Shown: positions 53,011 through 55,612 of the stretch, in pieces | How positions within the stretch are numbered: the stretch's first letter is position 1 | How the letters are laid out: each line of letters begins with the position of its first letter | DNA from: a virus | DNA: 64,000 bases | Virus record (IMG/VR): IMGVR_UViG_3300021420_000014 | Strand: one strand, 5' to 3' | Program-made: the position numbers and the translations under genes | The notes under the pieces: model-generated | What the model was told of the DNA's origin: nothing | The model's database searches: none | The model's input: only the letters and a program-made list of their open reading frames with translations

Positions 53011-53052
53011 AGTAAACGCTTATTGACAACGGAACCAGTATACAGGTACTAT
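53011..53052 (+). promoter_or_regulatory. promoter with abutting AGTAAACGCTTA box
   Basis: AGTAAACGCTTA-TTGACA-N18-TACTAT. Confidence 0.7.
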
Positions 53053-53060
53053 TCGTCGGC

Positions 53061-53210
53061 ATGAAACAACTAACATGCCTCCGCTGCGGCCATTCCTGGT
53101 ATCCACGCTCGCCACAGAAGCCGGTGAAATGCCCGAATCCACAGTGTGCGAGCCCATACTGGGACAGGCCGCGGCGAGACAAATCCAAGTCAAAACGAGG
53201 GAGAATCTAA
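53061..53210 (+). CDS. small zinc-ribbon protein (not in ORF track)
   Basis: MKQLTCLRCGHSWYPRSPQKPVKCPNPQCASPYWDRPRR; ATG 8 nt after -10. Confidence 0.75.
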   Translation: MKQLTCLRCGHSWYPRSPQKPVKCPNPQCASPYWDRPRRDKSKSKRGRI

Positions 53211-53211
53211 A

Positions 53212-53937
53212 ATGGCTACGGCAGCAACAGCAAAGAAACTGGCTCCAAAAGTAGTCGCTGGAGGTAAACCAATCGAAGTCGTGCGACCCAATATGGCCTA
53301 TTTGTTCGCGGCCATCGAAGGTACCGCTCCGCTATTACAGAATCCCAAGACCAAACAATATCTAGACAGCATGATTGCGTCAGGCGAGGGAAAGGCGCAG
53401 GCAGCAAAAACTATCAAGAATCCCGAGGATGAATTTATCGCGCGCCTGAAACAGACCAAAGAAGAAATTGGATTAGTCCCCGTCGAAGCATTCACTGGTC
53501 GGCGTGGTCTATTTCCGACTGCTGCTAGGCTCGCTAGACTCAAGAAGATTTCGTCAACCACAGTGCTCGCCGGCGTCAAGGTGATTCCGGACGTCATGCT
53601 GGAATTTCAGGACGGCCTGCGCGGCTATCTTTTGATTCGCGGCGGATCAAAGCCGATCAATGACAAACACATTGCCGATATTGAGAAAGCCCCTGGCAAA
53701 CGAGTGCCCGTCCCAATCTATCGGCCGCGTTACAACCAATGGGGTCTTGAGCTGCGGATTAAATATTGGCCTACCTTGGTCAGCCTTTCCAATCTGATGT
53801 CGCTTCTCGCCACGATGGGCGAAGTGGGCGTTGGCTCATGGCGTCCAGAAAACGGCGGAATGTTCGGGACCTTCCAACTTCTGAACGCCGCAGAAGTAGG
53901 CGAAGCCATCGGCGCTGCTTGGCAAACGGAAAAATAG
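53212..53937 (+). CDS. RAMP/Cas7-like RNA-binding protein
   Basis: IEGTAPLL first strand, VP..AF, YRPRY..W.LELRI.Y, C-terminal G-rich loop GVGSWRPENGGMFGTF; GGGAGAATC RBS. Confidence 0.75.
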   Translation: MATAATAKKLAPKVVAGGKPIEVVRPNMAYLFAAIEGTAPLLQNPKTKQYLDSMIASGEGKAQAAKTIKNPEDEFIARLKQTKEEIGLVPVEAFTGRRGLFPTAARLARLKKISSTTVLAGVKVIPDVMLEFQDGLRGYLLIRGGSKPINDKHIADIEKAPGKRVPVPIYRPRYNQWGLELRIKYWPTLVSLSNLMSLLATMGEVGVGSWRPENGGMFGTFQLLNAAEVGEAIGAAWQTEK

Positions 53938-53940
53938 TTT

Positions 53941-54812
53941 CATAGCAAAGCGAAGCCGAGTCATGCCGTGCGAAGCCGTGCCTGGAAATAGCTTAGTGCG
54001 GCTCGGCCAAGCTTTGACAAGACAAGCGAAGAGTTGCAAATCAAACCCGAACCAAGGCCCTGAGAAGATGCGTCTAGATTAGCGGAGCGGCGCAAAGATA
54101 AGAGAAGCCGAGATTGCCGTTGATTAGTGAAGCGAGGCAAATCGAACGCTGATCTCTGCGGAGCCAAGCTATGAATAGCCATGCGCCGCCCAGCAACGAC
54201 CGGCCTGACGGAGCGGACCGTGGCATAGCTTAGCAAAGCCCGGAACAGCTGTGCTGAGCCGAAGCCGAACGAGTAGCGAAGCGAAGCGGTGCATGACAAT
54301 GCGCGGAGCCGAGAAGGCATAGCGCAGCGCATCGAACCGAACACGAAGATGAGAGAAGCGGAGCCGAGTGAAGCGGAGAGAAGTAAAGACAGGATAAGCT
54401 GAGCCTGGACCTGCGGAGCAGAATCAAACTCACGCCGCATTGACAATTACGGCTAACTCGTACCGTAGCCATGCTGAGCTGTGCGAAGCACTGCAGGGCT
54501 TAGAAAAACACAGCGGAGACGAGCATGACAAATAGAACTCGTACCTTGCGTAGCAGCGAGAGACCAAGAGGAGAACAGCGGCGCAAAGAACGGAACGGCT
54601 TGACAGCGCCGTGCGGTGCCTGCCGCAGATAAGCCAAGCGAACACCTAAGCGTAGCGATGCCCAGAGGAGTTTGGAGACGCGAAGTCGAGCGAAGAGAAG
54701 CCCGGACAACCAATCCGAACCGAACTATAAGCGTAGCGAGGCCAAGATTAGAAACGCGAAGAAGGACGAAGCGATGCCCTGACAAGAGAGTCCGAAGCAA
54801 ACACGGAGCGTT
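53941..54812 (+). repeat. AGC-NN period-5 array 1 (putative guide RNAs)
   Basis: agcAA agcGA agcCG agtCA tgcCG tgcGA agcCG ... over about 870 nt with periodic register breaks. Confidence 0.85.
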
Positions 54813-54815
54813 AAA

Positions 54816-55352
54816 ATGAAAAAGAAGAAACGGTATGTCCCGGTTGATGGCGCACATATTTCTACCGCCGAAGCCAAGAAGGTCGGCTTGGCTGTCGATC
54901 GGCTCATCAGCAAACTCGGCCGGCTGCCCACCACCGCGGAGTTTGCCGTGGCGAGCAGAATCAAAACCAGTCCAGCCTATCCCGTAGTCTTCAAGCGGTT
55001 CCGACAACTGACCGCGAGCGCGTGGGAAAACGCTGCCGCCTACTGCATTCGCAGCGTCGATATCGTTTGGATCGATGGTGCTGGCCGTCAATCGCTGCCG
55101 GAAAAGGCATTTTTCGTTTTGAGTTTGATCGAGGAAGCCAGGATCGACGACGAAAACGGCCACGCAACCATTTATCCAGTCGAGGATGCGCAAAAAAGTC
55201 CGGCCGCGATTGCTGCGCAAGAGTTAGCGATGCGCAGAACCGTGATGGCAGCAGTCGGCGACTTCGCGTCGCTCGCAGGTTTTGCAAAAGCACGCGCTGC
55301 GGCGATTCGAGCGATTGACGATTTAGGCGGAAGGGGCGGTCGCGCGGATTGA
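54816..55352 (+). CDS. accessory protein embedded between arrays
   Basis: GGAG RBS; KVG..VDRL...G.LPT..EF...SR...SPAY; loses the period-5 pattern. Confidence 0.7.
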   Translation: MKKKKRYVPVDGAHISTAEAKKVGLAVDRLISKLGRLPTTAEFAVASRIKTSPAYPVVFKRFRQLTASAWENAAAYCIRSVDIVWIDGAGRQSLPEKAFFVLSLIEEARIDDENGHATIYPVEDAQKSPAAIAAQELAMRRTVMAAVGDFASLAGFAKARAAAIRAIDDLGGRGGRAD

Positions 55353-55362
55353 AAATGATTTT

Positions 55363-55610
55363 CCGAAGCAGCGCACTGCCAAGCGCTGATTGGCTAAGCG
55401 TAGAAAAGCACTGCGCGGTAAACCAAACCAAACTCCATGCGAAGCATAGATTGACGCGGCGATGAGAAGCACAGCGAGGCGATGCGTAGCCCTGAAAGAC
55501 GCGGCAAGTCGAAACGTACTCGGTGCTGTGAGAAGCATGGTGCAGCGATGAGTAGATTAGCCGAGCAGGGATAAGCGAAGAATAGCGTAGTGAAGCGAAC
55601 CGCACTCAGA
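55363..55610 (+). repeat. AGC-NN period-5 array 2
   Basis: agcAT ggtGC agcGA tgaGT agaTT agcCG agcAG ggaTA agcGA agaAT agcGT agtGA agcGA. Confidence 0.8.
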
Positions 55611-55612
55611 GC

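Follow-up and report, generated by a model that had tools for sequence, protein, structure and literature searches.

VIPR systems, RNA-guided silencers of DNA that are related to CRISPR and were first described in 2026, are the closest described relatives of the locus reported here. In the text of the preprint that introduced them, a VIPR system combines a minimal RAMP protein (Vipr) with guide RNAs (vrRNAs) of 9-16 YNNGG repeats, usually carries one accessory gene (vap), and resides mostly in phages and proviruses (bioRxiv 10.64898/2026.04.26.720920). The variable dinucleotides (NN) are described there as pairing with double-stranded DNA, with one base skipped, which results in transcriptional repression of rival elements. 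The same text reports 667 classified systems in seven types (I-VII), and its Methods and the legends of figs S17-S18 add alternative repeats (NNNGG, YNNNG and NNNNG) as well as staggered and ribozyme-separated arrays. Here we analyze a 64,000-nucleotide (nt) stretch of viral DNA, IMG/VR record IMGVR_UViG_3300021420_000014, which we refer to as the window. We read its locus at 53023-55612 as a phage-encoded VIPR system with AGC-NN guides, and we put the probability of this reading at about 85%.

The reading is carried by the homology and fold of the Vipr protein, the anatomy of the arrays, the persistence of arrays, boundary and accessory gene across relatives, and the setting in a phage. A sequence-only reading of the same DNA had proposed a RAMP/Cas7-like protein on a 5-nt-periodic RNA, with one subunit on each pentamer and a gapped target given by the NN pairs, and had likened the locus to phage VIPR systems with GGY-NN RNAs. 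The parts of this proposal that can be computed are borne out. The likeness proved sound, as VIPR has been published with that mechanism and the 241-residue protein of the locus is homologous to the Vipr of Escherichia phage SUSP1. The AGC scaffold had also been called a distinct variant, and this stands in part. The fixed trinucleotide does differ from GGY, and the GGY motif was absent from the window arrays, but non-GGY repeats had already been published. These include YNNNG and, in the text of a later preprint, 21 clusters of Vipr-associated pentamers with other trinucleotides such as GAC, CAC, WGT and TGH (bioRxiv 10.64898/2026.10.21.760802). AGC is not named in the text of the VIPR preprints. 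Written in the YNNNG register, AGC-NN becomes C-NN-A-G, a match at the level of repeat formulas.

The sequence-only reading had placed a promoter, a zinc-ribbon mini-gene and open reading frames (ORFs) of 241 and 178 amino acids (aa) in this order. ORF and promoter scans recovered all four at the expected positions. The features of the locus are as follows.

53023-53052, plus strand: predicted sigma-70-like promoter (TTGACA, 18 nt, TACTAT), matching 10/12 in a consensus scan.
53061-53210, plus strand: zinc-ribbon mini-gene P0003, an ORF of 49 aa with CxxC...CxxxxC, the first gene after the promoter.
53212-53937, plus strand: vipr (P0001), 241 aa, a minimal Cas7-like RAMP by profile homology and fold.
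53938-54815: first non-coding stretch, 878 nt, with no credible gene.
53941-54803, plus strand: array A, about nine vrRNA-like units (U1-U9), from lag-5 identity and phase segmentation.
54816-55352, plus strand: vap candidate (P0002), 178 aa, whose homologues follow vipr in relatives.
55353-55612: second non-coding stretch, 260 nt, reaching the 3' end of a minus-strand gene.
55364-55604, plus strand: array B, three units (U10-U12), from lag-5 identity and phase segmentation.

P0001 had been taken for a RAMP from its motifs, IEGTAPLL at residues 35-42 and GVGSWRPENGGMFGTF at residues 206-221. No Pfam family matched it, and it matched PHROG 4652, a family of unknown function, with E 4e-9. As a single sequence, P0001 gave a weak PDB match (E 0.019) that covers the thumb and G-loop and points to 36pp, 'SUSP1 Vipr protein'. 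Profiles sharpened this match. A clade profile of six homologues (A1) reached SUSP1 Vipr (36pp_D) among PDB sequences at E 2e-6, and a family profile of 112 sequences (A3) reached it at E 2e-18, as the only PDB sequence below 1e-3. On this profile evidence, P0001 is a homologue of the solved SUSP1 Vipr. An exhaustive profile search returned 2263 representatives at E<=1e-3, mostly of about 200 aa. Only four of these had E<1e-30, so the immediate clade of P0001 is rare.

The predicted structure points the same way. Searched with Foldseek, the AlphaFold2 (AF2) model of the 53212-53937 product had 16 matches at E<=1e-3, all to Cas7, Csm3 or Cmr4 proteins, led by type VII Cas7, Csm3 and Cmr4 (best E 5.6e-5). 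Every one of the 50 best VIA-align rows was a CRISPR RAMP subunit, nearly always from the Cas7 group. Z reached 8.5, and the aligned part comprises about 150 residues between 25 and 232. The model thus has the Cas7/RAMP fold, with an RNA recognition motif (RRM) core, a G-loop (GVGSWRPENGG, 206-216) and a YRP thumb on the beta-hairpin at 149-173. Both the profile homology and this fold bear out the RAMP/Cas7-like assignment that had been made from the motifs.

The closest solved folds are therefore the Cas7 backbone subunits of CRISPR systems (Csm3, Cmr4, type VII Cas7 and type I Cas7), at VIA Z 7-8.5 over about 150 residues. Like Vipr, these proteins oligomerize on a guide RNA with a fixed period, and their thumb disrupts pairing at set intervals. 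They differ in that their period is 6, whereas the period here is 5, with three of the five bases predicted to be buried. The locus also lacks a repeat-spacer array, Cas5, Cas6, a large subunit and adaptation genes. Rfam found no family at E<=1 in 52500-60500, CRISPR repeats and hammerheads included, apart from one sub-threshold small RNA match elsewhere, and PADLOC had no match for P0001, P0002 or P0003. P0001 is the only RAMP-like or Vipr-like ORF in the 64-kb window. With no Rfam CRISPR repeat, no PADLOC match and a single RAMP-like ORF, the locus does not have the makeup of a CRISPR-Cas system, and the earlier statement that CRISPR repeats and other cas genes are missing agrees with these empty searches.

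The type II VIPR of SUSP1 (Vipr, vrRNA and Vap1; PDB 36pp) offers a comparison at the level of single residues. The text describing its structure reports one protomer per repeat, with G1 read by H17 and D177, G2 held by R138 and W178, and Y3 held by E71/M72 and R179 (bioRxiv 10.64898/2026.04.26.720927). SUSP1 R138, W178 and R179 align to R171, W210 and R211 of P0001. Among six clade members, R171 is invariant, the W210 position is Trp or Tyr, and the R211 position is Arg or Lys. The G1 readers are not kept: D177 and H17 align to Ser209 and Asn44. A pocket in which the G1-reading residues are changed and the G2/Y3 contacts are kept matches the RNA, where the second and third fixed bases remain G and C and the first is A instead of G.

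The two systems share further traits. Each has a small single-RRM RAMP, the two being homologous by profile, with a GxGxWRP G-loop and a YRP thumb. In each, pentamers of three fixed and two variable bases flank vipr, a small accessory gene lies between or beside the arrays, and the whole is phage-encoded without cas genes or a CRISPR array. They differ in the trinucleotide, GGY in SUSP1 and AGC here. SUSP1 has four separate RNAs of about 100 nt, whereas the window has about 12 units in two near-continuous arrays, and a structured pseudoknot tail in SUSP1 contrasts with a short AAWCRAAC boundary here. Protein identity is low, and P0001 can be aligned to SUSP1 Vipr only by profile. The locus also resembles the alternative-repeat VIPRs, which have non-GGY pentamers beside a Vipr-like fold and continuous arrays in which the end of one guide is the start of the next, as judged from their descriptions in the preprint text.

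Stretches of about 870 and 250 nt had been said to consist of a semi-constant trinucleotide plus a variable dinucleotide. They measure 878 and 260 nt, and their autocorrelation has the expected period. Identity at lag 5 was 0.43 in both non-coding stretches and 0.36-0.41 at lags 10-25, compared with 0.17-0.35, mostly near 0.25, at the remaining lags. The flanking genes had no lag-5 signal. Against 500 mononucleotide shuffles, the lag-5 signal had z = 10.7 in array A and 6.0 in array B. The unit is [A>T,G]-G-[C>A]-N-N. A phase-tracking model of the window arrays gave A 61%, G 17% and T 17% at position 1, G 81% at position 2, and C 69% and A 24% at position 3, with positions 4-5 variable.

A periodicity of this kind could in principle stem from chance or low complexity, or could belong to minus-strand ORFs, of which three (161, 255 and 204 aa) are open across the arrays. 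The departure from shuffles and the recurrence of the architecture in five other distinct loci refute this explanation, to which we assign a negligible chance. The arrays have no 3-nt period and they recur elsewhere, and we therefore dismiss the minus-strand ORFs. Low-complexity AGCNN tracts in bacteria also look different, with identical NN in each unit. A search for (AGCNN)x5+AGC in a one-genome-per-species collection (185,579 species) gave at least 120 matches, all of them plain pentanucleotide microsatellites with no Vipr-like ORF nearby.

Phase is lost about a dozen times along the lattice, each time at or close to a short motif that contains AAC and that the sequence-only reading did not mention. 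These slips divide the arrays into units of 8-23 pentamers that close on an AAWCRAAC-type boundary. Each unit below spans from the start of the in-phase run to the end of the boundary. U1-U5, U7 and U8 end on a motif-matched boundary, and for U6 and U9 the end was set by eye at a looser AAC motif. All lie on the plus strand.

53944-54046, plus strand: U1, array A.
54056-54147, plus strand: U2, array A.
54152-54270, plus strand: U3, array A.
54275-54337, plus strand: U4, array A.
54347-54429, plus strand: U5, array A.
54467-54540, plus strand: U6, array A.
54547-54643, plus strand: U7, array A.
54649-54720, plus strand: U8, array A.
54730-54802, plus strand: U9, array A.
55367-55432, plus strand: U10, array B.
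55438-55515, plus strand: U11, array B.
55524-55600, plus strand: U12, array B.

The boundary is a conserved motif of 8-11 nt (AAWCRAAC, often followed by TC) that ends each unit in all loci of the clade. It reads AAATCGAAC(TC) in the window, L001 and L007, TTTCAAAC in L003, and GCGAACTCAAA in L005 and L006 (L numbers denote the loci that we compared). Judged from this sequence conservation, the AAWCRAAC motif is the probable guide boundary of the clade, and it is far shorter than the tail of SUSP1. Neither hammerheads nor other ribozymes were found between the guides (Rfam, E<=1), and the folding of six units, four from the window and two from relatives, was no better than that of shuffles (z -1.4 to +1.2).

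Homologue loci had been expected to carry adjacent period-5 arrays, and they do. DNA was available for five distinct relative loci (L001, L003/L004/L008, L005, L006 and L007), and AGC-NN arrays directly follow vipr in all five. Vipr identity to P0001 was 68% in L007, 54% in L003/L004/L008 and 39% in L001. The arrays of the relatives are cleaner than those of the window, with A at 70-79%, G at 88-96% and C at 70-86% in the three fixed positions, and their units are 60-120 nt long. L003 has the same vipr-array-vap-array layout as the window. No clade member was present in the one-genome-per-species collection, and a metagenome scan for the clade added only L007 and one copy of L003. The neighborhoods of the relatives are unrelated: L001 adjoins SMC-like and PD-(D/E)XK genes, and L005 adjoins prepilin-like genes.

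The accessory gene is conserved as well. Homologues of 176-196 aa follow vipr in L001, L003, L005 and L006 (22-41% identity, alignment A2), while the sequence of L007 ends too early to show this gene. By tblastn it was found in L001, L003/L004/L008 and L005, and again at L065 1497-1958 (29%, E 2.5e-5), where the neighboring array is canonical GGC-NN and the Vipr is of the Asp class, with a GxGDWRP G-loop. This accessory family therefore also occurs with a repeat type other than AGC. The AF2 model of P0002 (pLDDT 80) has a winged-helix-like N-terminal domain and a C-terminal helical hairpin. It had no Foldseek match at E<=1e-3, and VIA gave weak matches (Z 5-6.5) to the winged helices of LOTUS, ScpA, Fur and ORC. 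Its look-alikes in the Atlas were viral hypothetical proteins, and VIA and the Atlas gave a weak likeness to Rep3_N. This modeled winged-helix likeness agrees weakly with the DNA-binding vaps that the preprint text describes for several VIPR types (bioRxiv 10.64898/2026.04.26.720920).

P0003 is less firmly part of the system. A Pfam search gave no above-threshold match for this 49-aa protein. One homologue was found by tblastn (42% over 36 aa, E 4e-4), at L018 1716-1814, directly upstream of the first array there. The mini-gene was not found in the other relative loci and is not conserved in the clade, and its membership in the VIPR system is uncertain.

We asked how the G-loop residue relates to the repeat across a broader sample. 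Two class-specific alignments were used with the IMG/VR loci that we fetched, 80 with a GxGDWRP Vipr (Asp class) and 14 with a GxG[AS]WRP Vipr (Ser/Ala class), and the score was the commonest trinucleotide repeated at distance 5 in period-5 regions. Arrays were seen in 70 of the 80 Asp-class loci, and GGC or GGT was the top trinucleotide in 66 of these 70. Ser/Ala-class repeats were AGC in L011, L012, L020 and the whole P0001 clade, AAC in L016 and L019, TGT(-like) in L018, mixed xGC in L010, and GGC in L013, L021 and L022. AGC-type arrays are not unique to the P0001 clade. The G-loop and repeat were compared in about 58 dereplicated loci. The resulting table had 31 GGY and 3 other for the Asp class, and 2 GGY and 7 other for the Ser/Ala class (Fisher p 1e-4, ignoring shared ancestry). 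From these sequences, Asp appears to go with GGY and Ser/Ala mostly with other trinucleotides, which is a lead and not a rule. In the Ala-class locus L012, AGC-NN blocks at 3630-3690 are split by a stretch with a tRNA-like T-arm (GGTTCGAGTCC), which suggests that guides of this lineage may be matured by tRNA-processing enzymes.

These surveys bear on whether the arrays are Vipr guides at all. They might instead be DNA or non-guide RNA, for example sites for a winged-helix protein, a packaging or partition site, or a protein sponge. Array B does abut the 3' end of the large terminase gene, the accessory protein looks weakly DNA-binding, and the target searches described below gave no convincing target. 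However, the arrays travel with vipr in unrelated neighborhoods with no terminase nearby (L001 and L005), and the Asp-class loci show the same association, with GGC or GGT on top, as counted above. The three-fixed/two-variable unit, the unit lengths and the strand also match the vrRNAs described in the preprint text. We consider a non-guide role highly unlikely and return to the arrays as guides.

We searched for targets of the guides in several collections. Both strands of the window and of 103 loci, 1.17 Mb in total, were scanned at skips of 0-3 with 13 guide segments of the window (U1 was split into U1a and U1b) and 16 guides of relatives, and no self-target exceeded shuffled guides. This agrees with the published absence of VIPR self-targeting, as stated in the preprint text (bioRxiv 10.64898/2026.04.26.720920). 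In IMG/VR, exact 18-base (9-NN) cores of U2, U5, U6 and U7 had no match, and the core of U3 had one in the NN-x-NN pattern, at L103 8887-8918. Units 1-11 of U3 match this site at 22/22 bases, and the remaining 11 match at a random level of 5/22. The site lies at the junction of two minus-strand genes on an unrelated viral contig of 42% G+C, with the skipped base off the wobble position of the main gene. The chance level is near 0.01, and the match is probably chance rather than a target, which makes it a weak lead. The 15-NN pattern of U7, allowing up to 3 mismatches, was absent from 406 genomes, of which 401 were Planctomycetota, the guessed host phylum, and 5 were others.

The composition of the variable dinucleotides gives a different kind of clue. 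Their first base is G-rich and their second A-rich, and an AGCGA unit before many boundaries supplies part of the GA excess. The fit was best for codon positions 1-2 in the sense direction (-678 bits, compared with -704 for a uniform model and -688 for the next model among five other registers). A code that skips the wobble base and is aimed at coding strands would produce such a fit. Read as codons, the guides resemble peptides, and U7 gives V[SR][DE][HQ]GTG[NK]TT[FL][SR]RGLAY[HQ][DE], which is Walker-A-like and which may resemble the P-loops of TsaE or ParA-type proteins. In shuffled NN, any GxGK[ST] arises with a probability of 0.008, as assessed post hoc.

The same data bear on whether this could be a VIPR relative that uses another code, with another skip length, a third informative base at position 1 or 3, or RNA targets. 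Positions 1 and 3 are unusually variable in the window arrays, the two positions that in SUSP1 read the first fixed base hold other residues here, and skips of 0-3 cannot be told apart in the window and the 103 loci because no target is present. On the other hand, positions 1-3 are nearly fixed in the clade relatives at the frequencies given above, the NN makeup fits codon positions 1-2 best, and the contacts to G2 and Y3 are conserved. We judge another code to be quite unlikely. If it were true, the guides would not be decodable by the NN-x-NN rule.

Several observations weigh against the VIPR reading or parts of it. The confidence of the Vipr model is middling (pLDDT 64). The arrays of the window are more degenerate than those of the relatives (A about 50-60% at position 1 and C 53-69% at position 3), and some window units may have decayed or may be read differently. 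The units fold like shuffles and so lack a structured 3' tail comparable to the pseudoknot of SUSP1, and guide maturation may therefore differ. The correlation between the Asp and Ser/Ala classes and the repeat ignores phylogeny, and L013, L021 and L022, which combine a Ser/Ala-class Vipr with GGC, are exceptions to it. Lastly, no convincing natural target was found in the window, the 103 loci, the IMG/VR cores or the 406 genomes.

By analogy with the published systems, we infer how a VIPR of this type would work, from transcription and processing to ribonucleoprotein assembly, the skipping of 1 nt between pairs, repression and what is targeted. The promoter at 53023-53052 is the sole plus-strand site that passes the consensus scan within 52700-55900. 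This single promoter probably drives one long transcript containing the zinc-ribbon gene, vipr, array A, the vap-like gene and array B. TTGACA-like hexamers within the arrays were considered as internal promoters and rejected, as their sequence is compatible with the repeat unit (T-G-A-C-A) and the promoter scan accepted none of them. If processing resembles that of SUSP1, the transcript would be cut at or near the AAWCRAAC boundaries to give about 12 guides, each 60-120 nt long. Every pentamer of a guide would be covered by one Vipr protomer, with the fixed A-G-C bases buried. The exposed NN dinucleotides would pair with double-stranded DNA, skipping one base between pairs, and the filament so formed would keep the bound gene from being transcribed. 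That gene would most likely belong to a competing mobile element, or possibly to the host.

The VIPR locus is virus-encoded, as seen from the adjoining terminase and from the relatives L003 and L004, which are IMG/VR contigs of 57 and 72 kb.

55613-57412, minus strand: large terminase, 599 aa (PHROG 2, E 9e-24), whose 3' end abuts array B.

The closest isolate relative of this terminase is that of Methanosarcina virus MetMV (45% over 66% of the protein, E 9e-99). Terminases of bacterial phages are far behind, at <=30% over comparable spans and <=37% on shorter stretches. The promoter and ribosome-binding sites look bacterial despite the MetMV-like terminase.

A second repeat lies farther along the window. 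On the plus strand at 59752-59806, nine canonical GGY-NN pentamers occur: five are GGT-NN units, an additional G then shifts the phase by 1 nt, and the other four GGY-NN units follow. A hairpin and T-run at 59716-59746 precede the run, and about 50 nt and another T-run follow it. The run could be a canonical vrRNA that stands alone in a phage with a Vipr that would read AGC, or nothing more than a GT-rich simple repeat. Solo vrRNAs are described in a further preprint (bioRxiv 10.64898/2026.10.15.759431). On a more speculative reading, which we hold to be unlikely, AGC-reading Viprs would form a natural channel orthogonal to GGY-reading Viprs, set mainly by the Asp-to-Ser/Ala change in the G-loop. 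The phage would then exploit both channels, with its own AGC system whose guides lie on conserved coding motifs and with the solo GGY-NN RNA at 59752-59806, which would hijack or decoy the Vipr of a competitor. U7, for example, would be aimed at the Walker-A box of a P-loop gene in a rival element or the host.

The concept and mechanism of VIPR and its non-canonical repeats are already published, and this locus does not change the concept. What it contributes is an AGC-type clade that is well defined and has a boundary motif and an accessory gene of its own, an array in two parts that is unusually long at about 12 units, and a residue-level explanation for the changed first base. The VIPR field is months old, and its bench study covers only GGY-type systems. 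The clade offers a clean example from nature: an A in the first fixed position, a changed reader for that base, and an RNA-binding pocket that is otherwise preserved. It suggests a testable specificity rule, with Asp in the G-loop for G and Ser/Ala for other bases, and such a rule could provide orthogonal Vipr/guide pairs for multiplexed gene silencing. The roughly 12 units would also be a rich set of guides from which to learn what an environmental phage silences.

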